DNA of 64,000 nt from Escherichia coli (lineage in GTDB: Bacteria > Pseudomonadota > Gammaproteobacteria > Enterobacterales > Enterobacteriaceae). The position numbers were made by a program, and so were the translations under genes. The DNA lies in the NCBI RefSeq assembly GCF_003991155.1, contig NZ_CP031293.1; one strand, given 5' to 3'. Positions 37,462 through 57,214 of this stretch are shown here, piece by piece. Under the pieces are notes generated by a model. The model searched no databases and had not been told where the DNA came from. It was given only the letters and a program-made list of their open reading frames with translations. Position 1 is the first letter of the stretch. Every line of letters starts with the position of its first letter.

Positions 37462-37494
37462 AAACCGCGCCATATGCAGACATGGCGCGGTTTT
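37462..37494 (-). terminator. probable intrinsic terminator downstream of betT
   Basis: Perfect 12-bp inverted repeat AAACCGCGCCAT/ATGGCGCGGTTT around an 8-nt loop; on the minus strand the stem is followed by UUUCUCUU; 13 bp past the betT stop. Confidence 0.55.
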
Positions 37495-43444: not shown

Positions 43445-43975
43445 CTCAGGAACCTATCAGATTGAGAGTTACCGTTCTACTATGAGGACCGAATCCTTAT
43501 ATAAAACACTGAGGTAACTCTCATGCTTCATATCCAGTATTCATGATGCTGGCTTTTTGCTGATATTTAACCCGAACATTCCTGATACAGACTATTAATT
43601 CATTTATCTGCGGCAGATTTTATTTTCTGGATATATTATGAGTGAACAAATCAAACAGGATATCGATCTGATTGAGATTTTATTTTATCTGAAGAAAAAG
43701 GTAGATGAATACCAACAAAACTCTGGGCAGTAATAAACAGCATTCTGATAGAGAGTGCCTGTATAAAGCTGAAGTGACAATGACCGGGAAGGGAACCCGT
43801 TTTCAGGAATGGATGCCTGTCTTTTTCAATTTAAATATCCTGGCATTAGTAATGCCAGGATATTTACAGAAGAGCAGCATAACCATGACGGAACGGGGTT
43901 AAGTCAGGTTGTCCTAAACGCTATTTTCAACCTCGTATGCCTTCTTCAGGTTTATGTCCAGACTTCATATCTCTC

Positions 43976-44671: not shown

Positions 44672-46091
44672 TCTTTTTCTCCTGCGCCTGATGTTTCTTA
44701 AACCAACTACGGAAACTCTCTCCGTCAGCTTCAGGAAGATCGCGTGCTTCCATCCAGTCGCTAATCGCGCCAAATTTGAGTGGTGTTTTGCCGCCATTGA
44801 TAAACCAGCTTGCCGCATGAGCACCAGCCATCATCCCAACTTTCCACAATCCTGGATGACTATTGGCATAAGCGAACATTTTTATCGCCCGTTGCTCTGC
44901 TTTTGCGGTGATCCCTTTTTCAGCCATCACCCGACGATGACGCAAAATCAGTTTTGACAGCGGAATACGCACCGGACACACGCTGTCACAAGCGGTGCAT
45001 AAAGAGCAGGCGTAGGGTAAATCTTTAAAATCTTTATAGCCGCCAAGTAGCGGAGAAATCACCGCACCAATTGGCCCTGGATAAATAGAGCCATATCCAT
45101 GACCGCCAATATGGCGATATGCCGGACAAGTATTCATACAAGCCCCGCAGCGAATACAGCGCAGCACATCCCGAAATTCAGAGGCCAGCACCTCAGAACG
45201 CCCGTTATCGACAATAACCAGATGAAACTCTTCAGGACCATCAACGTGCCCCGCTTCGCGCGGTCCTGTCAGCCAGGTGTTGTATCCCGTCAAACGTGCA
45301 CCAACGGCACTGCGCGCCAGCATGGTGATCAATACATCTACCTCGGCAAACGTGGGGGCAATACGCTCCATTCCCATCACTGCAATATGCGTTTTAGGCA
45401 GCGTGGTACACATTCGCGCATTACCTTCATTGGTCACCAGGCATACCGAACCGGTCTCTGCCACCGCGAAATTACAGCCGGTAATACCTATTTCAGCACT
45501 GAGGAAATCTTCGCGGATTTTTTGCCGGATGAATAAGGTCATTGCTTCAGGCGTTTCCGACCCCTCATAGCCCAGACGTTCGTGTAGCACCCGACGGATC
45601 TGATGGCGATCTTTATGAATTGCCGGGACCACAACATGAGAGGGCGGATCTTGATCCAGCTGGAGAATGTATTCACCCAGATCGGTTTCAATCACCTGAA
45701 TGCCAGCATCCTGCAACACATGATTGACACCAATCTCTTCGGTCACCATCGATTTAGATTTCACCACCTTCCGGGCATTTTTGCGTTGGGCAACCTGTAA
45801 AATGTAGCGGGTAGCGTCTTCTTTGGTTTTTGCAAAATAGACGTGACCGCCGTTTTGCGTCACTTTTTCTGAGAGCTGGTACAGATAAGCGTCGAGATTA
45901 CTCAGAACATGATCACGTATCTGGGCGGCCCGATCGCGCCATTCCTCCCAGTGCCCCAATTCATCGACCATTTTTTGCCGATTTGCCCCGATACGCTGCT
46001 GCGCGTTTGCCACCGCTTTGCGCATGATCGGATCTTCAATTTGCTGACGGATGCGTGTCTTAAAATCTGTATTACTGGTTTTGATCGACAT
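44664..46091 (-). CDS. ykgF: LutB-like iron-sulfur oxidoreductase
   Basis: 475 aa; two 4Fe-4S ferredoxin motifs, CIRCGACMNTCP and CSLCTACDSVCP. Confidence 0.88.
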   Translation of the reverse strand: MSIKTSNTDFKTRIRQQIEDPIMRKAVANAQQRIGANRQKMVDELGHWEEWRDRAAQIRDHVLSNLDAYLYQLSEKVTQNGGHVYFAKTKEDATRYILQVAQRKNARKVVKSKSMVTEEIGVNHVLQDAGIQVIETDLGEYILQLDQDPPSHVVVPAIHKDRHQIRRVLHERLGYEGSETPEAMTLFIRQKIREDFLSAEIGITGCNFAVAETGSVCLVTNEGNARMCTTLPKTHIAVMGMERIAPTFAEVDVLITMLARSAVGARLTGYNTWLTGPREAGHVDGPEEFHLVIVDNGRSEVLASEFRDVLRCIRCGACMNTCPAYRHIGGHGYGSIYPGPIGAVISPLLGGYKDFKDLPYACSLCTACDSVCPVRIPLSKLILRHRRVMAEKGITAKAEQRAIKMFAYANSHPGLWKVGMMAGAHAASWFINGGKTPLKFGAISDWMEARDLPEADGESFRSWFKKHQAQEKKNG

Positions 46092-46101
46092 CTTTATATC
46101 C

Positions 46102-46821
46102 TCAGCGACTCATCAGCACTTCAGCAATATGCATCACTTTGACTTTCTGCCCTTCCCGTTGTAATCGTCCACTGATGTTCAGCAGGCAACTCACGTCAGC
46201 ACCAATTAAATACTCAGGGCGGGCTTCCATCAGGTGCACAACCTTTTCTTTCACCATCTCGCCGGATATTTCGGCCATTTTGACCGAGAACGTGCCGCCA
46301 AATCCGCAGCAGGTATCCTGTTCAGCAAAGGTCAACAGCTCCAGTCCACGCACATTTTTCAGCAGCGTAAGTGGTTCGTCCTTCACCCCCAGCTTACGGG
46401 CCAGGCTACAAGATGGGTGATACACCGCTCTCCCTTGCAAACTGGCACCTACATCGACTACCCCTAATGTATTAACAATAAAAGAGGTGAGATCCTGCAT
46501 ACGCGCGGCAACCTTTTCGGCACGTGATGCCCATTCAGGTTCATCCGCCAGATACGTCGGGTAACTTTTTACGGCATAGGTGCAAGAGCCAGCCGGTGAA
46601 ATAATGGGATCGTCGTTATCCTCCAGTGCGGCGATCAGATTTTTCATCCCTGGAATCGCTTCTTTGATATAACCACTATTGATCGCAGGCTGACCGCAGC
46701 ATCCCTGTTTCTCCGGGAAATTTACGCGACAGCCGAGTTTTTCCAGTAGCAGCACGGAGTCTCGTGCCATTCTTGATTTCAGGGCGTCACCAATACAGGT
46801 GACAAAGAAATTGACATTCAC
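46102..46821 (-). CDS. ykgE: LutA-like cysteine-rich (CCG-domain) oxidoreductase subunit
   Basis: 239 aa; cysteine-rich motifs CCG and CSCA-type; first gene of ykgEFG. Confidence 0.85.
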   Translation of the reverse strand: MNVNFFVTCIGDALKSRMARDSVLLLEKLGCRVNFPEKQGCCGQPAINSGYIKEAIPGMKNLIAALEDNDDPIISPAGSCTYAVKSYPTYLADEPEWASRAEKVAARMQDLTSFIVNTLGVVDVGASLQGRAVYHPSCSLARKLGVKDEPLTLLKNVRGLELLTFAEQDTCCGFGGTFSVKMAEISGEMVKEKVVHLMEARPEYLIGADVSCLLNISGRLQREGQKVKVMHIAEVLMSR

Positions 46822-47346
46822 AACTAATACTCCATTACTTCATGCCCATTTATGCCCGATGGTTCCCCCCTTCCGGGGGATCAATCATCAATAAATATGG
46901 CGTTCTTTTTTAATTGGCTAGCAACATACCACCCCTCATTTGTATGACAAATGATAATCTTTCATCTAAACTTCAAATGCAATAACTAATTTTATTTCTT
47001 TCGGCATCGCTCACATTTTATAGGGAAATCGACGATCATTTTTGGCATAAGAAATCCATTTAAAAAGGCTACACCCCTTATACCTATTCAGAGCTACTTA
47101 TTCAGGGGTTATTGAGATATACACTGATGGTGCACAAAAAAATCACCGACAATAATCACGCATCAAGTAATAGTCGGGATTTTATTTAATTGAAGCAATT
47201 TAGTTTGCATTTTTATTTAAAAACTGAGCTAGAGTCCATCAAAAAAATATATAAAGCCCAAAACCACCGTTGGAAATAGAAATAGTTGAAAGGCTCACAA
47301 CTCCCGGAATGCGGATTATCTTTGCCCTGATTTCTGGCGGTTTTAT

Positions 47347-48201
47347 TCAGGGTGCAAGCTGTCTGACCCTTTCCCGATATTCTCCCGGGGTACAACCAAA
47401 CTCGCGAACAAACGCCTTGTGAAAAGATGATTCACTGGCATAGCCTACTGACTCAGCGATCACCACAACAGGGAGCGTTTCCCGGGAAAACATCTGGGCC
47501 GCTATTTGTAGACGCAACTTTGTTAATACAGCCAGCGGCGTGGTTCCGGAAACATCACGGAAAAGCTGGGCAAAACTTGCCCGGGACATGTGGGCGATGC
47601 TGGCCAGCGATTCGACGGTCCAGGCGTGTCCTGGCATTTCCAGCATTTGCTGTATTACCGCACCAAGACGTGGATGTAGAAGCAAACTGAGAATGTTTTT
47701 CTCTGTATTAACCTGTGCAATCCACTCACGCACCGCGAGGGTAAAGAATGTAGCGCAGATCTGGCTACACAGAGCATCCACTCCCGGCATTGCCGATCTG
47801 GATTCCTGTTGTAAAAACGGGATCGCCTCCCTCAGCCAGTTATATTCCACGCTATGGTTCACTGGTGCTACAAACAGCGTTTCCGGCAAAGACGTTAAAA
47901 AATAACGCGCCGAATGTTGCAGCCGAAGAGTGCCACAGACAATACAGGTCGATTCATTATCGACATGACTCAGGCGATGAGCTGAATTTTGTGGTAGCAG
48001 GACCACATTTCCCGGGCGTAATGTAAAAATCTCTCCCGTCGGCATTTCCAGCTTCGCCGCTCCTTGCGTTAACGCATGCCAACGAATAACCGACAATTCC
48101 CCGGCACCATGTGGAAGTTGCCAGTCACTTCCTAACACGCAATTCTTATCGATCGTTCCTTGTGGAGCGTTAAGCATCAACAAACGGCTAAGAGCATCCA
48201 T
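47347..48201 (-). CDS. rclR: AraC-family reactive-chlorine-responsive activator
   Basis: ORF 47347..48252; ATG at 48201 gives MDALSRLLMLNAPQG (284 aa); C-terminal AraC HTH; divergent from rclABC. Confidence 0.9.
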   Translation of the reverse strand: MDALSRLLMLNAPQGTIDKNCVLGSDWQLPHGAGELSVIRWHALTQGAAKLEMPTGEIFTLRPGNVVLLPQNSAHRLSHVDNESTCIVCGTLRLQHSARYFLTSLPETLFVAPVNHSVEYNWLREAIPFLQQESRSAMPGVDALCSQICATFFTLAVREWIAQVNTEKNILSLLLHPRLGAVIQQMLEMPGHAWTVESLASIAHMSRASFAQLFRDVSGTTPLAVLTKLRLQIAAQMFSRETLPVVVIAESVGYASESSFHKAFVREFGCTPGEYRERVRQLAP

Positions 48202-48427
48202 ATCAGACTCCTGAGTGGTTTTTTGATTACAAACACCAACAATCTTAGTCAATAATTAATCTAATACCATCAAATAGTTAATCATGATTTTTGTTTTGTG
48301 ATTCTGATTAAGAAAAAGAAAATACCAGACGATAAGACAAAATATCAAGCGTTGTGAAGAAATGTTATTTGCTCTTTTGCGTCTATAGTCATGATGTCAA
48401 ATGAACGCGTTTCGACAGGAAATCATC

Positions 48428-49753
48428 ATGAATAAATATCAGGCAGTTATTATTGGTTTTGGCAAGGCTGGAAAAACATTAGCCGTCACGCTGGCAAAAG
48501 CAGGTTGGCGTGTGGCTCTCATCGAACAATCAAATGCAATGTATGGCGGGACCTGTATTAATATCGGCTGTATCCCAACCAAAACATTGGTTCATGACGC
48601 ACAGCAGCACACAGATTTTGTCCGTGCCATACAGCGTAAAAATGAAGTGGTTAATTTTTTACGTAATAAGAATTTTCATAATCTTGCGGATATGCCCAAT
48701 ATCGACGTGATCGACGGCCAGGCGGAGTTTATCAATAATCATAGCCTGCGTGTTCATCGGCCTGAGGGAAATCTGGAAATTCATGGCGAGAAAATTTTTA
48801 TTAATACCGGTGCAAAAACCGTGGTTCCGCCAATTCCTGGAATTACCACCACGCCTGGTGTATATGACAGCACCGGATTACTTCATCTAAAAGAATTGCC
48901 TGGGCATTTAGGTATTTTGGGCGGCGGATATATTGGCGTTGAGTTCGCCTCTATGTTCGCTAATTTTGGCAGCAAGGTAACCATTTTAGAAGCAGCTTCG
49001 CTGTTTTTGCCTCGGGAAGATCGGGATATTGCTGATAACATCGCGACGATTTTACGCGATCAGGGCGTCGATATTATCCTCAATGCCCATGTGGAGCGAA
49101 TCAGTCACCATGAAAATCAAGTGCAAGTGCATAGCGAGCACGCCCAACTGGCGGTGGATGCACTGTTAATAGCTTCCGGTCGTCAACCGGCTACCGCTTC
49201 TTTACATCCAGAAAATGCCGGTATCGCAGTAAACGAGCGCGGGGCAATTGTCGTTGACAAGCGATTACATACCACCGCAGACAATATTTGGGCGATGGGA
49301 GATGTTACCGGCGGGCTGCAATTTACTTACATATCACTAGATGATTACCGCATTGTACGTGATGAGTTACTGGGTGAAGGCAAACGTAGTACTGATGATC
49401 GGAAAAATGTGCCTTATTCCGTATTTATGACACCGCCACTGTCCAGGGTTGGTATGACAGAAGAACAAGCCAGAGAGAGTGGTGCTGATATTCAGGTGGT
49501 GACATTGCCTGTAGCTGCAATTCCGCGCGCCAGAGTGATGAACGATACCCGTGGGGTATTAAAAGCGATTGTTGATAATAAAACCCAACGTATATTAGGG
49601 GCATCACTGCTGTGTGTTGACTCCCACGAGATGATCAATATAGTGAAAATGGTGATGGATGCCGGGCTGCCTTATAGCATATTACGCGATCAGATATTTA
49701 CTCATCCGTCGATGAGCGAATCACTCAATGATCTATTTTCATTAGTCAAATAA
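48428..49753 (+). CDS. rclA: pyridine nucleotide-disulfide oxidoreductase
   Basis: ORF 48401..49753; ATG at 48428 gives MNKYQAVIIGFGKAGK (441 aa); redox-active disulfide motif GGTCINIGCIPTK. Confidence 0.9.
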   Translation: MNKYQAVIIGFGKAGKTLAVTLAKAGWRVALIEQSNAMYGGTCINIGCIPTKTLVHDAQQHTDFVRAIQRKNEVVNFLRNKNFHNLADMPNIDVIDGQAEFINNHSLRVHRPEGNLEIHGEKIFINTGAKTVVPPIPGITTTPGVYDSTGLLHLKELPGHLGILGGGYIGVEFASMFANFGSKVTILEAASLFLPREDRDIADNIATILRDQGVDIILNAHVERISHHENQVQVHSEHAQLAVDALLIASGRQPATASLHPENAGIAVNERGAIVVDKRLHTTADNIWAMGDVTGGLQFTYISLDDYRIVRDELLGEGKRSTDDRKNVPYSVFMTPPLSRVGMTEEQARESGADIQVVTLPVAAIPRARVMNDTRGVLKAIVDNKTQRILGASLLCVDSHEMINIVKMVMDAGLPYSILRDQIFTHPSMSESLNDLFSLVK

Positions 49754-49861
49754 ACTCAAAATCAGACGCCAGAACAAATATTCTGGCGTCTCAGAGAAAA
49801 TAATCTTATTAATTCCCTGTTATTATATAACTTCTTAATCACTTCATTGATGGTATTTTAT

Positions 49862-50098
49862 ATGTTTAAAAAACCTGTTTTATTTGCAACACTATTATCT
49901 GGCGTTATGGCATTTTCCACCAATGCAGATGATAAAATAATTCTGAAACATATCAGCGTCTCGTCAGTATCAGCATCACCGACAGTTCTGGAGGATGCCA
50001 TTGCTGATATGGCCAGAAAATATAATGCTTCATCCTGGAAAGTCACATCGATGCGAATTGATAATAATTCAACCGCAACAGCAGTATTGTATAAATAA
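49862..50098 (+). CDS. rclB: small periplasmic DUF1471 protein
   Basis: ATG at 49862 gives MFKKPVLFATLLSGVMAFSTNA (signal peptide), 78 aa. Confidence 0.78.
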   Translation: MFKKPVLFATLLSGVMAFSTNADDKIILKHISVSSVSASPTVLEDAIADMARKYNASSWKVTSMRIDNNSTATAVLYK

Positions 50099-50109
50099 GG
50101 ATGTTTACA

Positions 50110-50703
50110 ATGGAGAAATACCTGCACCTGTTAAGTCGGGGAGATAAAATTGGCCTGACATTGATTCGTCTGAGTATTGCGATTGTTTTTATGTGGATTG
50201 GGTTATTAAAGTTTGTCCCTTACGAGGCAGACAGCATTACACCATTCGTCGCAAACAGTCCACTAATGTCGTTCTTTTATGAACACCCGGAAGACTATAA
50301 ACAGTATCTGACTCACGAAGGCGAATACAAACCAGAAGCAAGAGCATGGCAAACGGCTAATAATACCTATGGTTTTTCCAACGGTCTTGGCGTCGTGGAG
50401 GTGATTATTGCTCTGCTGGTTTTGGCTAATCCTGTCAATCGCTGGTTAGGTTTATTGGGTGGGCTGATGGCATTTACCACGCCGCTGGTAACACTCTCAT
50501 TTTTAATCACCACCCCGGAGGCATGGGTACCCGCATTGGGTGACGCTCATCATGGTTTCCCTTATTTATCCGGTGCTGGTCGCCTGGTATTGAAAGATAC
50601 TCTGATGCTGGCAGGTGCTGTCATGATAATGGCAGATTCGGCGCGGGACATTCTTAAACAACGCAGTAATGAATCCAGTTCAACGTTAAAAACTGAATAT
50701 TGA
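50110..50703 (+). CDS. rclC: inner-membrane protein (DUF417)
   Basis: ATG at 50110 gives MEKYLHLLSRGDKIGLTLIRLSIAIVFMWIGLLKF, 197 aa, hydrophobic. Confidence 0.82.
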   Translation: MEKYLHLLSRGDKIGLTLIRLSIAIVFMWIGLLKFVPYEADSITPFVANSPLMSFFYEHPEDYKQYLTHEGEYKPEARAWQTANNTYGFSNGLGVVEVIIALLVLANPVNRWLGLLGGLMAFTTPLVTLSFLITTPEAWVPALGDAHHGFPYLSGAGRLVLKDTLMLAGAVMIMADSARDILKQRSNESSSTLKTEY

Positions 50704-50864
50704 TAATCCGAACACTGTCTGTTGTTCACTTTTTCAGGCGTCAGGCTTTCCTTGCTAATGGGTGAAGCCTGACGCCATATTACCTGAAACAGGACAATGT
50801 AAGGTTCAATATAACTCCCTTATTAAAACATTTATGTCGTCTCAGGTAAAATAAGTGATTAATA

Positions 50865-51734
50865 TCAATCATGTATTTTTACAGCAAGACAACCACGAAC
50901 AAACTCAGGATTAAAATGTTTTACCGATTCCCCAACATAACCCAAATCTAGCGAACTAATTTGCGCCATTTCTTTCTCTGTCAGTGAGAAATCCCAGATA
51001 GCAAAATTTTCTTCGATACGCTGTTGATGTGTTGATTTCGGAATAACGACCACTCCCCGTTGAATATTCCAACGCAGAATGACCTGAGAAATCGATTTTT
51101 GATGGGCATCTGCAATACTCTGAAGCAGATTATTTTCAAAGGGTTTATGTCGTCCACCACCTAACGGAGCCCATGCTTCAGGCTGCACGTTATAATACTT
51201 CATGATTGCCAGCGCCTCTGGTTGGGCAAAATAGGGATGCAACTCGACCTGATTGACCATCGGTTTAACTCTTACCGTTTCACAAAAGTTCGCCAGAACA
51301 TGAGGGTAGAAATTGGAAACCCCAATCGCTTTTAATTTGCCCTCCTCATAGGCATCTTCGAGTGCACGCCACGCACTAAAATAATCGCGCATGGCCTGGT
51401 GCAATAAATAGAGATCGAAGTATTCTAGCCCCGATTTTTTTAATGATGCTTCAATACCTGCTGCTGCAATATCCTGATTCAACATATCCTGCACCCACAA
51501 TTTAGACGTTATAAATAACTCTTCTCGGGTACATAAACCTTCAGATATGGCTTCACGAACGGCTTCACCGACGGCATCTTCATTACCGTATACCGCTGCA
51601 GTGTCGATGAGTCGATAACCCGTGCGGATAGCATTCAACACTGACTGTTTGCACACGTCTTTATCGGTAACCTGAAAAACACCAAATCCCATCATCGGCA
51701 TTTTCAGATTGTTACTTAATACGGAAAATTCCAC
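50865..51734 (-). CDS. aldo-keto reductase family oxidoreductase
   Basis: ORF 50865..51749; probable GTG start at 51734 preceded by GGAGGG; AKR motifs ([32 protein letters not shown]). Paralogue of the AKR at 57780..58631. May correspond to an intact form of the K-12 ykgQ pseudogene (uncertain). Confidence 0.8.
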   Translation of the reverse strand: MEFSVLSNNLKMPMMGFGVFQVTDKDVCKQSVLNAIRTGYRLIDTAAVYGNEDAVGEAVREAISEGLCTREELFITSKLWVQDMLNQDIAAAGIEASLKKSGLEYFDLYLLHQAMRDYFSAWRALEDAYEEGKLKAIGVSNFYPHVLANFCETVRVKPMVNQVELHPYFAQPEALAIMKYYNVQPEAWAPLGGGRHKPFENNLLQSIADAHQKSISQVILRWNIQRGVVVIPKSTHQQRIEENFAIWDFSLTEKEMAQISSLDLGYVGESVKHFNPEFVRGCLAVKIHD

Positions 51735-51981
51735 TGTCAGTCCCTCCATTAGGTATGAACAATGAGTCTACGTTAAAACGTAACCTCAAATTAGTATGTG
51801 GATTTTGATATCACTTATGCAAAAAATTCATTAATAATGTAGGACTGAAACCTCTCTATTTTTGGGGCAATGAAGCAGACGCTATCAGTGCTTTTGCCTT
51901 GGGACTTGCTGTTTTTGATACACTTAGGGCCCAGGACATAACGAAAATGTGCGATATGACAAAGAATTAACGGAGTATGTG

Positions 51982-52839
51982 ATGATCAGGCAGAAGATTC
52001 TACAGCAGCTCCTGGAGTGGATTGAGTGTAATCTTGAGCACCCTATTTCAATCGAAGATATCGCACAGAAATCTGGCTACAGCAGACGCAACATCCAGCT
52101 TCTGTTCCGAAATTTCATGCATGTGCCTTTGGGAGAATACATTCGCAAACGAAGGCTTTGTCGTGCCGCCATTCTTGTCCGGCTCTCCGCGAAATCTATG
52201 CTTGATATTGCACTCTCTTTGCATTTTGATTCACAGCAATCATTCAGCCGCGAATTTAAAAAGTTATTCGGCTGCTCTCCCCGTGAATACCGCCACCGTG
52301 ATTATTGGGATCTCGCAAATATCTTCCCTTCTTTTTTAATACGTCAACAGCAAAAGACGGAGTGTAGATTAGTCAACTTTCCTGAGACACCTATTTTTGG
52401 CAATTCATTTAAATATGATATTGAAGTGTCGAATAAATCACCGGATGAAGAAGTCAAACTGCGACGTCATCATTTAGCCAGATGTATGAAGAATTTTAAG
52501 ACGGATATCTATTTCGTCTCCACGTTCGAACCGTCAACAAAATCGGTCGATTTGCTCACAGTTGAAACTTTTGCCGGTACGGTATGCAAACAAACCGATT
52601 CAGAGATGTCGAAAGAGTGGACAATTAACCGAGGACTGTATGCCTCTTTCCGCTATGAAGGTGAGTGGGAGCACTACCCTGAATGGGCGCGAAACCTCTA
52701 TCTGATGGAATTACCCGCCAGGAGGTTAGCCAGAATGAACGGCAGTGATATTGAGCGGTTTTATTACAATGAAGATTTCGTAGAAAAGGATAGCAATGAT
52801 GTTGTTTGCGAAATATTTATCCCTGTTCGTCCGGTTTAG
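51982..52839 (+). CDS. ykgA: AraC-family regulator with a C-terminal effector-binding domain assigned as GyrI-like by memory
   Basis: ORF 51949..52839; ATG at 51982 preceded by GGAG; N-terminal AraC HTH (ISIEDIAQKSGYSRRNIQLLF). Appears full length here. Confidence 0.78.
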   Translation: MIRQKILQQLLEWIECNLEHPISIEDIAQKSGYSRRNIQLLFRNFMHVPLGEYIRKRRLCRAAILVRLSAKSMLDIALSLHFDSQQSFSREFKKLFGCSPREYRHRDYWDLANIFPSFLIRQQQKTECRLVNFPETPIFGNSFKYDIEVSNKSPDEEVKLRRHHLARCMKNFKTDIYFVSTFEPSTKSVDLLTVETFAGTVCKQTDSEMSKEWTINRGLYASFRYEGEWEHYPEWARNLYLMELPARRLARMNGSDIERFYYNEDFVEKDSNDVVCEIFIPVRPV

Positions 52840-52963
52840 CCTGTAAATCCATCACATAAGATTTACCCTACCCTGCCACCGTCTAATCGGTACCAGGGTA
52901 GGTATTCAGTAAATAATGGCGCTGCGCATGTCAACGCCATTATTATTTATTACATCATCGCTT

Positions 52964-55900
52964 TTATTTCTCCTCAGCGCCTTCAGTATCTGCAGGAACG
53001 GCGTTAATTGTCACAGTCACTGGTTTCATTTCATACCCTCCATATGTCAAAGAGTTGAATGTGAATGTGTATGTACCTGGCTTGTTGGTACTAAATGTAC
53101 GCGTGATTTTCCCGTTCGCGAAATGGTCATTTTTCGACGGCAGGAACTGATAATCCGCCTCTGTCACCCCTTCCGGAGCCTCAATGTCGACCCACATGGT
53201 TCCTCCTACGGGGTTGACACCCGACATCAGAGTAACCGTCAGTGTTGCAGTTGTCTTCCCGTCCGCCACCAGAAAATCTACACGCTCTGGAGATGCAGCG
53301 AGCTCCGCGTTTTTATCATCCGCGACGAATTTAGATTCGGCAGTTTTCGTCGATTCCTGACCATCGGCCTGTTCCACTTTCGCCGTGAGTGTATATGTCG
53401 CTGCGACAGTGGTCGTGGCGGTGAAAATAGCCTGCCCTTGCTCATTCGTTGTCGCCGTCCCATTGGGAGTCAGAACTAAATTTTCCGGGCTGGCAGTCAG
53501 CGTCACTTCGCTATCTTTCAGCAGGTTGTTATTGGCATCAGTCACCGTAACTTTATACGTCTGTTTGGTTTTGCCATCCGCCACTGCACGGTTGCCAATC
53601 ACCTCAATACTGGAGATGGTCGCCGTAGTGTTATCGGCCACAAACGTTACAGACTGCGCATTCGAAGGCTGGTCATTTCCTGCTGACGCCGTGATCTCAT
53701 AGGTTCCGGCAGTCACGGAAACCACTTTCAGTTCCGCTTTACCCTCCTTGTCGGCGTTCACCATGATATTACCGTCTGCAAGCGGTTTGACGCCCCGAGG
53801 CAGATTAAAGACGACCACAGCGCCAGGAAGAAGGTTGCCGTATTGATCCTTAACCGTTGCCGTCAGCGTAAAGGCATCTTTGCCGTTTGCCACTTTTTGA
53901 GCAGCGGCGTCTACCTCCAGGCTCGCCTGACCGGTACTGAAATCCGCCTTGAATTTCACCTTGACCGTCTTCTGAGAGTTTTTCACCGAGGCCTCGATCT
54001 CAAGTTCCCCGGCAACCGTTGACATCAGCTCAATGTCAGCTTTACCTGCCGTATTGGTTGTTACCGTATTCCCCGTCTTGCTGGTCACGCCCTGCGGTAA
54101 AGTCAGCGTAACTTCTTGCCCCTGCAACGGGTTACCATAGCTGTCCACGACGGTCAGGGTTATCTGGTTAGCAGACTGTCCATTAGCCAGTTGGTTATTA
54201 ACCTTCACTGTCATATCACGAATCTCAGCCTTAGATGCGTCACCTGCAACGTTCAGCACCAGTGGCTGAGCAACGGCATTTTGGCCATTCACTCGCGGCA
54301 TCACAGACAACTGACCCGCGGCAGATCCCAGCGTTAAGGTCGCCACGTAGACCCCATTACTTTGCTCTGTCCAGCTTCCTGCTGAAGGTCGCTCACTCCC
54401 CGTGCTGGCGGCACCGCTAAACACTGGTGCATCGAGCTTCAGGCCACTAACAGGGTTCCCATACGCATCCTTCGCGGTGAAGGTAAGTTCCGTCGTCGCT
54501 TTGACGGTCGGAGCCTTATTGTCAGCAACAAGCGTAGAGTTCGCTGATGACATCTCCCCCGCAACGACAGTCAACCGCGCAGCATCGGTGGCTGCTGGCT
54601 GACCGTTGAATAGCGGCATAACGAGAAGCTCACCCGTCTTTCCCCCTGTGGTCAGCGTAGCGACATAGGAACCATCGCCCTGCTCGGTCCAGTTGGATAC
54701 CGTCGCCCCTTCAGACGCAGCACCCGTCAGGCTTGCCGACAGGGAAAGGCCACTGATAGCGTTGCCATGCGCATCTTTTGCAATAAGCGTCACGGTTGTG
54801 CTTTCGCCTGCTTTTACGCGGTCTGCGGCTACAGAGACTGTCGACTGGCCTGAAGATAACGCATCAGCCACCACGGTCACTTTAGCCGCATTCGCTGCCG
54901 CGTCCTGCCCATTGAGCTTCGGCATAACCTCTAATTCCCCCGCCGTAGTGCCGAGAGTAATCTGCGCAGTCCAGGTCCCGTCGCCATTATCCGTCCAGCC
55001 TGATGCCATAGACCCCGCAGCGGCTGCGCCAGATAATGACGGTGCATCTGGATTGAGGCCAATTACAGGGTTGCCATTGGCATCTTTTGCCGTCCAGATT
55101 GCCGTAAGCGTACCACCAACCACCGGTTTATCCGGATTCAGGGCGATGGTCGAATGTGCTGCATCAAGCGGCCCGGCGACAAACTTCAGCGTTTGTTGTA
55201 ATGAGCCCAACTGATACTGCTCGCTAAAGGCACGCACAACAACGTTTCCGGCACGGGTCGAAGAAACCGTGGCGCTGTAAACCCCTGGTTTTATTTCCGA
55301 AATGGCACCAATGGTTACACCATTAGTGTCTTGCGGAACAAGTCGCAGGCGGCTGGCTTCTCCCGTCACCGGATTACCCTCGGAGTCCACCGCTGTCAGT
55401 GTCAGCGTGTAGACTTGCTGACCATCAGCAACCACATCACCTGACGGCTCGTTAGCGCTCAGGGTGGAGTTTGCCACATCCATCATCGTGGCCCGCAGTT
55501 CTGCAGTGACAGTTTTGCTCATGTCATCAACGCTAACAGTAATCGTTGCCTCTCCTGACTGCGTTCCGGTAGTAAAGACAGACTGATACACCCCTGCTTC
55601 AGTTTCGGTGAACTCACCCAGTGTTGGCTTTGCCTGTGATTTAGTGGCCTTCAGGGTACGAGTCACAATATTTCCAGCCGGTTTGAACGTCAGCTCAGTC
55701 TTGATCTGATCTTTCATGCCCGTGACTGGCTGCCCCTCGGCGTCGCGCAGAGAAAGCACCAGTGGCTTTTGCTCACTACCGTTAGCAAGCATTTGAATAC
55801 GGCTCTGACCGTCAAGCGTTAACGCCGTGCGCTCGGCACTCATACCTGCTCCGGTAATGACCACCTCTGTCTGCACGTGTTTTGAGGCATTGCCTTTGTT

Positions 55901-57214
55901 ATCGTAGGCAACCGCAGAAATCGCATAATAATTGTCTTTGCCTGCCTGGTAAGCCGGGAGCGTCACTTGCCACTGATTGCCCTGCCCCGTAATTTTTCCG
56001 CCTGCGGCCAGCAAAGACGGCGCTTCCCATTGCACATTTTTCAGACCGTGAGTTGCTTTGCTGACCACAAGCCCCAGGGAAACCGTCTGGCCGCCCTTGC
56101 CTTCAATACGCTCAGGCAGAGCAATACGGATCACTTCAGATTTGCGATACTCAAGAACGATATTGTTATTACGCTCAACCAGGTCATAGCGGCTGCCTGC
56201 CAGCATTCGACGCTCGCGAATACTGTCTGTATCGAGTTGTTTTTCCAGAGGTTCGCCAATCCGATAATTAACTTCCAGGCCAAAGCGAGTGTCATTCTCA
56301 CCACTCTTGCCCTGCTTATGCCCGGCACTCAGGGTCAGAAGAGGCACTGGCGTGTAATTCACTTCAGCGGTAATCGCATGTGGATCTTTCTGGCGTTTAT
56401 CTTTACCAAACAGCCCGACTTCATCGCCATAATACTGTTCATACATCAGGCTTGCGCCAAGCTGCGGCCAGGCAGGTAAATAGCCCTCAGCACGAATATC
56501 CCAGCCATTCGCCGGGCGTTCCTGATAATCCTCAACATCCGGCGATTTTTTCCAGCCAGAAGCCCGGATATAACCATTGGCGCTCAGTTTCAAATAATCA
56601 CGCCAGTATTCCGCACCAACACCAATGCGGGTATGACTACGGGATAAATCATGATCGATAAAAGTATTCACCCCCGCCATCCAGTCATTTCCTGAAAAAT
56701 GACGCCAGCCAAAACCAATATTTGACTGAGTACGATCGTCGGTACGATGTATTGTCCCCTGAGTGAACAACATATTTGTCGGTGTATCATAAATCGGATA
56801 AAGCATTTCCAGCGAAGAATCCTTCAGCGAGAAATCTTTATCGACATTCAGTTTGACGCGCGCAGTACCGTATTTCCCGAGCCACTCCTGTATTTCCTGG
56901 TTAGCTTTAGCGGTGGCCATTCCGGTAATAAAATTACGTGTCGCATCGCTATCTGGCTGACTGCTTAAAAATGTCCCGGCATTTGCGGCAAACGACGCGA
57001 CATTTTTCTCCACGTTATTATCAGCAGTTACCGTAGTATTTCCCATGCTCAACCGTGGCTGAACCGCATGCTGCGCACGTGCCGCCATTACTGGGGTAAA
57101 GGTGACAGCGAGTGGAAAAAGAACCTGAACAGAGATATTTGCCCACGCCACGCAGCGGGCCAGAACTGAATAACGAAATTGTGGTTGTTTATGACCTATT
57201 TTATAACGTGACAT
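52964..57214 (-). CDS. eaeH: intimin/invasin-like adhesin (inverse autotransporter with bacterial Ig-like repeats), full length
   Basis: 1416-aa ORF; N-terminal signal and beta-barrel region, then a long run of Big-domain-like repeats rich in T/A/G/V (LTVVA... patterns recur); length matches FdeC/EaeH. Confidence 0.85.
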   Translation of the reverse strand: MSRYKIGHKQPQFRYSVLARCVAWANISVQVLFPLAVTFTPVMAARAQHAVQPRLSMGNTTVTADNNVEKNVASFAANAGTFLSSQPDSDATRNFITGMATAKANQEIQEWLGKYGTARVKLNVDKDFSLKDSSLEMLYPIYDTPTNMLFTQGTIHRTDDRTQSNIGFGWRHFSGNDWMAGVNTFIDHDLSRSHTRIGVGAEYWRDYLKLSANGYIRASGWKKSPDVEDYQERPANGWDIRAEGYLPAWPQLGASLMYEQYYGDEVGLFGKDKRQKDPHAITAEVNYTPVPLLTLSAGHKQGKSGENDTRFGLEVNYRIGEPLEKQLDTDSIRERRMLAGSRYDLVERNNNIVLEYRKSEVIRIALPERIEGKGGQTVSLGLVVSKATHGLKNVQWEAPSLLAAGGKITGQGNQWQVTLPAYQAGKDNYYAISAVAYDNKGNASKHVQTEVVITGAGMSAERTALTLDGQSRIQMLANGSEQKPLVLSLRDAEGQPVTGMKDQIKTELTFKPAGNIVTRTLKATKSQAKPTLGEFTETEAGVYQSVFTTGTQSGEATITVSVDDMSKTVTAELRATMMDVANSTLSANEPSGDVVADGQQVYTLTLTAVDSEGNPVTGEASRLRLVPQDTNGVTIGAISEIKPGVYSATVSSTRAGNVVVRAFSEQYQLGSLQQTLKFVAGPLDAAHSTIALNPDKPVVGGTLTAIWTAKDANGNPVIGLNPDAPSLSGAAAAGSMASGWTDNGDGTWTAQITLGTTAGELEVMPKLNGQDAAANAAKVTVVADALSSGQSTVSVAADRVKAGESTTVTLIAKDAHGNAISGLSLSASLTGAASEGATVSNWTEQGDGSYVATLTTGGKTGELLVMPLFNGQPAATDAARLTVVAGEMSSANSTLVADNKAPTVKATTELTFTAKDAYGNPVSGLKLDAPVFSGAASTGSERPSAGSWTEQSNGVYVATLTLGSAAGQLSVMPRVNGQNAVAQPLVLNVAGDASKAEIRDMTVKVNNQLANGQSANQITLTVVDSYGNPLQGQEVTLTLPQGVTSKTGNTVTTNTAGKADIELMSTVAGELEIEASVKNSQKTVKVKFKADFSTGQASLEVDAAAQKVANGKDAFTLTATVKDQYGNLLPGAVVVFNLPRGVKPLADGNIMVNADKEGKAELKVVSVTAGTYEITASAGNDQPSNAQSVTFVADNTTATISSIEVIGNRAVADGKTKQTYKVTVTDANNNLLKDSEVTLTASPENLVLTPNGTATTNEQGQAIFTATTTVAATYTLTAKVEQADGQESTKTAESKFVADDKNAELAASPERVDFLVADGKTTATLTVTLMSGVNPVGGTMWVDIEAPEGVTEADYQFLPSKNDHFANGKITRTFSTNKPGTYTFTFNSLTYGGYEMKPVTVTINAVPADTEGAEEK

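Follow-up and report, generated by a model that had tools for sequence, protein, structure and literature searches.

We found that the convergent intergenic region between rclC and an aldo/keto reductase gene of Escherichia coli encodes a very stable stem-loop that has no U-tract on either strand. From its stability, position and conservation we propose, with a probability of roughly one half, that this hairpin is a 3′-end-defining, exonuclease-blocking stem-loop for the rclABC mRNA, probably for the reductase mRNA as well, and that it perhaps also supports weak intrinsic termination. The hairpin belongs to a known class as an unannotated member specific to E. coli, adding one further E. coli case of genes that end in a stable hairpin lacking a U-tract, presumably through Rho and exonuclease trimming. 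With it, both the rclABC oxidative-stress operon and the reductase gene next to it would have a defined 3′ boundary, the practical value of which is small, and the hairpin offers a natural test case in which two alleles have the same stem with different loops and stem lengths.

The hairpin lies in a 64-kb window (the whole stretch of DNA that we analysed, 64,000 nucleotides), in which the gene order is rclR (− strand), rclA, rclB and rclC (+), aldo/keto reductase (−), AraC-type regulator (+) and large adhesin (−); E. coli genomes that are identical or nearly so carry the same gene names in RefSeq. rclC, which encodes a DUF417 inner-membrane protein, occupies 50101-50703 on the plus strand (197 amino acids in the RefSeq model, 200 in the longest open reading frame), and the reductase gene, intact here, occupies 50865-51749 on the minus strand (289 and 294 amino acids, respectively). 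That the two genes converge had been claimed in the original prediction and was confirmed by the RefSeq annotation and by Pfam families PF04224 and PF00248. Their stop codons, at 50701-50703 and 50865-50867, enclose an intergenic region of 161 nt; the hairpin begins 34 nt past the rclC stop, and 88 nt separate its right arm from the stop codon of the convergent reductase gene. In K-12, the reductase gene is a pseudogene fragment, ykgQ. Also intact in the window are the genes for the AraC-type regulator (51949-52839) and the 1,416-amino-acid adhesin (FdeC/EaeH; 52964-57214), and the three genes correspond in K-12 to the pseudogenes ykgQ and ykgA and to an IS3-interrupted eaeH. Compared with O157:H7, the intergenic region between regulator and adhesin (52800-53300) and parts of the 3′ half of the adhesin gene (53600-54000 and 54400-54800) are very divergent, by as much as 40% per 100 nt. 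Two candidate features were set aside: an AtoC site reported for ykgA-ykgQ is irrelevant here, as it sits in the other, divergent intergenic region, and small open reading frames across the hairpin (21-30 amino acids) found no support, their frames being broken by indels between alleles.

The stem is formed by a left arm, GGCGTCAGGCTT (50737-50748), and a right arm, AAGCCTGACGCC (50765-50776), which make up a perfect 12-nt inverted repeat with eight G-C pairs. A perfect 12-bp repeat had been predicted at 50747-50776; the repeat is present and its end was placed correctly, but its start was placed 10 nt too far to the right, and the wrong start looks as if the span had been composed from 12 + 6 + 12. 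A loop of about 6 nt had also been predicted. At the DNA level this does not hold, as the arms are separated by a 16-nt spacer (TCCTTGCTAATGGGTG; 50749-50764), the most variable part of the hairpin. A short loop arises only in plus-strand RNA of the window allele, in which 50749-50752 pair with 50760-50764, these U-G, C-G, C-G and U-G pairs bring the stem, with its single bulge, to 16 pairs and close a 7-nt loop, UGCUAAU. Folding-energy calculations bore out a stable structure with z-scores of about −6: the 40-nt hairpin reached −26.9 kcal/mol as plus-strand RNA (z = −6.1) and −23.9 kcal/mol as minus-strand RNA (z = −6.6), and its fold z-scores ranged from −5 to −6.6. The suggested extension of the stem by TTCAGG and CCTGAA exists as complementarity (50729-50738 with 50783-50792, nine of ten positions) but not as a stem extension: its GG already forms the first two bases of the stem, and the pairing goes unused in the minimum-energy fold. 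Its right side reads CCGGAG in the majority E. coli allele and is thus not conserved.

Sequences on either side of the stem are unlike terminator tails. Directly 3′ of it on the plus strand is an invariant, U-poor tail, ATATTACC (50777-50784; three U in eight), and the 3′ tails of the hairpin read AUAUUACC on the plus strand and UGAAAAAG on the minus strand, with U at 3/8 and 1/8 of positions, which confirmed the earlier observation that neither strand has a clean U-tract. A T5 run (50730-50734, plus strand) lies immediately 5′ of the stem and reads as A5 past the 3′ end of the stem on the minus strand; a terminator tail would need it on the opposite side, whichever strand is considered. The TTACC of the invariant tail doubles as the 5′ base of a second hairpin (50780-50852; base TTACCTGA/TCAGGTAA), imperfect and long-range, between the first hairpin and the reductase stop. 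This second hairpin folded at −15.6 kcal/mol as plus-strand RNA and −20.4 kcal/mol as minus-strand RNA, and was partly conserved between alleles with no clean compensatory changes.

Second-order Markov simulations yielded an expectation of 0.17 perfect 12-nt inverted repeats with a 3-20-nt gap per 64 kb, and at least one such repeat occurred in 12.5% of simulated windows; the real window has three. The other two perfect inverted repeats (at least 12 nt, short gaps), at 37462-37493 and 43832-43866, are flanked symmetrically by A/T-rich sequence, as is typical of intrinsic or bidirectional terminators. By itself, the repeat is marginal against chance, and it is the conservation seen in genome comparisons that marks it as non-accidental. 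A 71-nt query detected it at the same locus in 5,037 of 5,426 complete E. coli genomes, and BLAST searches with an 11-nt word and 71- and 49-nt queries placed it at a median of one and a maximum of two places per genome. No second copy was found within the 64-kb window, and no annotated feature was found at the repeat, including in NC_000913.3. A gathering-level scan of 46000-54000 with Rfam 15 gave no match; a permissive Rfam scan of 50300-51300 gave chance-level hits, the best being weev_FSE, a generic hairpin, at 21 bits against 40 (E = 1.5). A repeat family or mobile element was ruled out, since the repeat is single-copy per genome and in the window. REP/BIME elements are likewise intergenic GC-rich palindromes able to stabilise an upstream mRNA. 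They have many dispersed copies with a consensus, whereas the hairpin is single-copy and has no repeat annotation in NC_000913.3; its sequence is also presumably unlike the REP consensus.

Comparison of alleles showed that only a 10-bp core of the stem, GGCGTCAGGC/GCCTGACGCC, is universal in E. coli, its left half being 50737-50746; the 12-bp form is a minority allele found in about 175 genomes. The K-12-type allele, whose 49-mer was identical in 3,704 genomes and 1-2 nt off in 1,168, has CC (or TC) for the TT at 50747-50748, which is paired only in the window-type allele. It has a different loop with 18 nt unpaired and folds at −22.3 kcal/mol (plus-strand RNA) or −25.2 kcal/mol (minus-strand RNA) over 69 nt. 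G-U pairs extend the helix on the minus strand in the K-12 type and on the plus strand in the window type, so the two alleles disagree on which transcript matters. Between 50747 and 50766 they differ by nine substitutions and a 2-nt indel, and the cores are 20 bp apart in the window allele and 18 bp apart in the K-12 allele.

The loop and the remaining intergenic sequence differ by about 25-55% between alleles, and the flanking genes by 1-3%; relative to O157:H7, the flanking coding sequence differs by 1-3% per 100 nt, and the bins at 50700 and 50800 by 14% and 11%. In the patch from 50747 to 50864, 30 of 118 positions (approximately 25%) differ from K-12, with 18 substitutions and one indel in the remaining 80 nt of the intergenic region, whereas the 33-nt 5′ flank and the two 10-nt cores are identical to K-12. 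The right arm, which is the same in every intact allele sampled, forms together with ATATTACC an identity island of 20 nt (50765-50784) inside a patch that is approximately 25-30% different; with differences placed at random, the probability of such an island is 0.0015 for those sites and 0.047 for any run that long. When the two main alleles are compared, the 5′ flank is conserved to the same degree as the left arm, which on its own therefore gives no sign of excess constraint. In a third allele (Eco_24-2013), a divergent 5′ flank is joined to a window-type loop and a K-12-type 3′ region, and the arms are kept bar one change, which brings to at least three the mosaic alleles across which the stem is kept. 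The breakpoints of the Eco_24-2013 mosaic in the patch fall at the conserved arms, and the comparison suggests that old alleles may have been exchanged there by short-patch recombination.

Among 11 aligned E. coli alleles and 39 homologous metagenome sequences (from 59 stretches retrieved in a flank-anchored scan), we found no compensatory base change. Apart from changes in the loop, the variants were a few single substitutions in the stem, none of them compensated, or 1-nt indels; low-coverage metagenome contigs account for the indels and for one of the substitutions, and disrupted stem variants are singletons among about 5,000 genomes. The retention of the arms within the divergent patch supports selection on the stem or arm-to-arm correction, and is not covariation. 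Because the stem is invariant save for these rare single changes, the structure is supported by thermodynamics and conservation and not by covariation. Two independent insertion events were observed at the hairpin: in strain LB858871 (L044, 401-480), IS1A is inserted within the loop, and in strain Z1323CEC0002 (L005, 245-301), in which rclC is deleted, the end of IS903B abuts the first (left) base of the stem.

Outside E. coli, the hairpin sequence was absent at the rclC loci of Salmonella, Shimwellia and Serratia and at mobile rcl loci, and reductase homologues in other genera lay in different contexts and had no such sequence beside them. An RclC search of genome contigs gave no Escherichia locus. 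The element thus appears to be restricted to the E. coli rclC-reductase junction. Other hairpins were found after rclC in these lineages. About 30 nt past rclC, Salmonella enterica subsp. arizonae carries a hairpin of unrelated sequence, GTCGGATGG...CCATCCGAC, with a T-rich run behind it, and the corresponding hairpin of subsp. diarizonae has a weaker tail. At one mobile rcl locus, L038, TTTTTT comes after the hairpin GCCAGCA-GGA-TGCTGGC, and the hairpin of another, L034, is U-poor. A hairpin is thus regularly present after rclC, with a sequence and tail specific to the lineage.

We infer from these features that rclABC transcripts end at the hairpin, with Rho involved in termination and the stem blocking exonucleases. 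The repeat would be transcribed within the 3′ untranslated tail of the rclABC mRNA on the plus strand, where it would fold into a very stable stem-loop, and it would probably also lie in the tail of the convergent reductase mRNA on the minus strand. Lacking a U-tract, the hairpin would be unlikely to release RNA polymerase efficiently alone; transcription would run on into untranslated, C-rich antisense sequence, where Rho would terminate it diffusely. The 3′-to-5′ exonucleases PNPase and RNase II would next shorten the RNA as far as the hairpin, which would leave a sharp, protected 3′ end and stabilise the message. Weak hairpin-dependent termination at AUAUUACC may contribute.

[quoted passage not shown] These stem-loops had a stability like that of intrinsic terminators, lacked U-rich tails or upstream A-tracts, and were followed by sequence enriched in C over G, and exonuclease mutants showed that PNPase and RNase II trim diffuse Rho-terminated tails to the hairpin (PMC6061677). 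All four of these sequence features are found in the hairpin on the plus strand: like those stem-loops, it is stable, lies downstream of a stop codon, has neither a U-rich tail nor an upstream A-tract, and is followed by an excess of C over G. It differs from them in that their 3′ ends and their sensitivity to bicyclomycin and exonucleases were measured, whereas the hairpin is known from sequence alone. It is also common to two convergent genes, and the 18-nt loop of its majority allele is unusually large. This loop, as found in K-12, is larger than in typical terminator-like hairpins and is a point against the exonuclease-barrier reading. On the plus strand, a C-rich, G-poor stretch follows 85-220 nt beyond the hairpin (50860-50997; C/G of 2.2-2.6 in 78-nt windows starting at 50860-50920), opposite the 3′ end of the reductase gene and antisense to it; by its composition, it is a candidate Rho-loading region for rclABC read-through. 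On the minus strand, the excess of C over G is weak (1.5-1.6).

Published transcript maps touch on this locus. For uninduced K-12, supplementary file 2 of Adams (2021) lists a Rho termination region at MG1655 318344(−), inside rclB and 13 nt from its stop, a position at the 3′ end of rclB that corresponds to about 50085 in the window. Because this region is listed in rclB, Rho acts on the rcl transcription unit in K-12. The Term-seq tables of the same study contain no 3′ end near MG1655 317.6-317.7 kb and list no Rho region at the hairpin; the lack of a listed 3′ end is to be expected, as the rcl operon stays silent in the absence of HOCl or HOSCN. Nothing at the hairpin is recorded in the TERMITe supplement, and we found no literature pairing rclC with ‘terminator’.

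We considered whether the hairpin could release RNA polymerase by itself. A consensus terminator scan of 50000-52100 did not call the hairpin or any terminator after rclC or the reductase gene, its sole match being within the reductase coding sequence; promoter-like sites in this interval were at chance level. As in canonical and bidirectional intrinsic terminators, a GC-rich hairpin (12 bp, −26.9 kcal/mol) lies in a convergent intergenic region soon after a stop codon (34 nt), but the 7-8-nt U-rich tract expected 3′ of the stem is missing. Against the usual loop of 3-8 nt, the loop measures 7 nt in plus-strand RNA of the window allele only, 16 nt between the perfect arms and 18 nt in the majority allele. 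A bidirectional terminator would have an A-tract 5′ and a U-tract 3′, whereas the plus strand here has UUUUU 5′ and AUAUUACC 3′; the only T run is thus 5′ of the stem, unlike at the repeats at 37462-37493 and 43832-43866. With a d'Aubenton-Carafa-type formula, the tails on the two strands scored 1.15 and 0.92, against 4.6 for the canonical rclC terminator of L038, which belongs to another lineage. The formula reportedly goes back to d'Aubenton Carafa in 1990. The original interpretation of this repeat, which had a weak bidirectional terminator among its options, was supported in part: a 3′-end role at the RNA level fits the position, stability and conservation, but the missing 3′ U-tract and 5′ A-tract and the excess of C over G downstream fit the exonuclease-barrier stem-loop of a Rho-terminated transcript better than a true bidirectional intrinsic terminator. 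It is possible, although we think it doubtful, that the hairpin is a weak, non-canonical and perhaps bidirectional intrinsic terminator that releases part of the polymerases without Rho at AUAUUACC on the plus strand or UGAAAAAG on the minus strand, perhaps with help from NusA or NusG. The strong GC-rich stem straight after a stop codon between convergent genes, the terminator-like 7-nt loop in plus-strand RNA of the window allele and the true terminators at the orthologous positions in S. enterica subsp. arizonae and L038 would fit this, and Dar & Sorek themselves consider that U-poor hairpins may be inefficient intrinsic terminators with Rho as backup (PMC6061677). Speaking against it are the U content of the tails, the T5 run on the wrong side, the low tail scores and the silence of the consensus scan, the lack of the symmetric A/U tracts seen at the two other perfect repeats of the window, and the 18-nt loop of the majority allele. 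This alternative overlaps the exonuclease-barrier model and differs from it only in whether Rho is needed for polymerase release. A stronger version, which we regard as improbable, would make the hairpin a U-tract-independent, two-way transcription stop or insulator common to the rclABC and reductase units, working by the hairpin alone with NusA/NusG or by polymerase collision; the fast-evolving loop and the hyperdivergent patch would then come from hairpin-associated mutagenesis or from recombination breakpoints at the conserved arms. Terminators lacking a U-tract have been proposed for mycobacteria as the ‘I-shaped’ type (a WebGeSTer class), a class that is disputed. They resemble the present element as hairpins that follow a gene without a U trail; they were defined in another phylum, and termination by the hairpin only is not evidenced here.

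The remaining alternatives concern whether the stem acts at all and, if so, whether as a cleavage site or as DNA. The hairpin might have no current function and be a relic, for example of a decayed terminator, kept by low E. coli diversity and arm-to-arm templated repair. The missing covariation, the 5′ flank conserved as much as the left arm, the pseudogene state of the adjoining reductase gene in K-12 and the tolerance of individual strains for single uncompensated stem changes, IS1 in the loop and an IS903B junction at the base would all agree with this. We nonetheless judge it unlikely, given that the right arm sits in a 20-nt island of identity within a patch that is about 25-30% different, that the stem is kept in at least three mosaic alleles with disrupted forms as singletons in about 5,000 genomes, and that other lineages hold a hairpin in the same place; a relic is less compatible with the conserved island than with the missing covariation and the tolerated disruptions. 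Control of mRNA decay by RNase E or RNase III, cutting the hairpin or the adjoining AU-rich AUAUUA, would be very improbable; an RNase target was among the options of the original prediction. The motif RN|WUU is reportedly the loose RNase E motif of Chao et al. in 2017. AU|AUU directly 3′ of the stem fits it and the tail is invariant, but a match is expected by chance at about 1 in 64 per position, and the stem of 12-16 bp falls below the roughly two helical turns that RNase III usually needs. We give least credence to a DNA palindrome bound by a dimeric regulator, a protein-binding role that the original prediction had also raised and that our results disfavour. The half-sites are conserved, 10-12 bp long and perfectly symmetric, but a dimeric operator would be expected to keep a fixed spacing near a promoter, and here the core spacing is 20 bp in the window allele and 18 bp in the K-12 allele, the site has a stop codon on each side and no promoter nearby to control, no second copy exists in the genome or window, and the arms are longer and further apart than in usual operators. 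The spacer varies in length and sequence while the stem persists, which argues for a structure and not for a spaced protein site.

Two further palindromes in this region were observed in the course of the analysis. One, AT-rich and centred on the reductase stop, is formed by AAAATAAGTGATTAAT/ATCAATCATGTATTTT (50848-50879); its A-run and T-run flanks are like those of a bidirectional terminator, it has only one G-C pair, and it folded at −8.2 and −5.7 kcal/mol on the two strands. It is almost invariant in all strains, possibly only from being partly coding. The other lies between rclA and rclB (AGACGCCAGAA/TTCTGGCGTCT; 49764-49791), starts 10 nt past the rclA stop and has 11 perfect pairs and a 6-nt loop, with a folding energy of −18.2 kcal/mol (z = −6.5) and no U-tract. 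Its core, ACGCCAG/CTGGCGT, is kept in S. enterica subsp. arizonae and diarizonae (L007, 2097-2252; L008, 2096-2251). In Salmonella and L038, a canonical terminator (GCCCTG..CAGGGCTTTTTTTT) that is missing in E. coli lies just upstream of this hairpin, of which L038 (1093-1246) has retained no more than the right half, embedded in a TTGACA-19-TAAAAT promoter-like site. A 2025 study reported rclB and rclC RNA at about tenfold below rclA RNA and called the regulation unexplained (PMC12096828). The rclA-rclB intercistronic element is an evident candidate for explaining this tenfold drop, and, although a by-product of the analysis, it may matter more than the rclC hairpin. The two rcl hairpins also have a sequence in common: TTCNGGCGTC, which is absent from the rclR-rclA promoter region, has four exact matches in the 64-kb window, three of which fall in these hairpins (49765-49774(−), 49781-49790(+) and 50733-50742(+)). 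By our own estimate, about 0.5 matches would be expected, and the sharing could reflect either chance or a common recognition motif.
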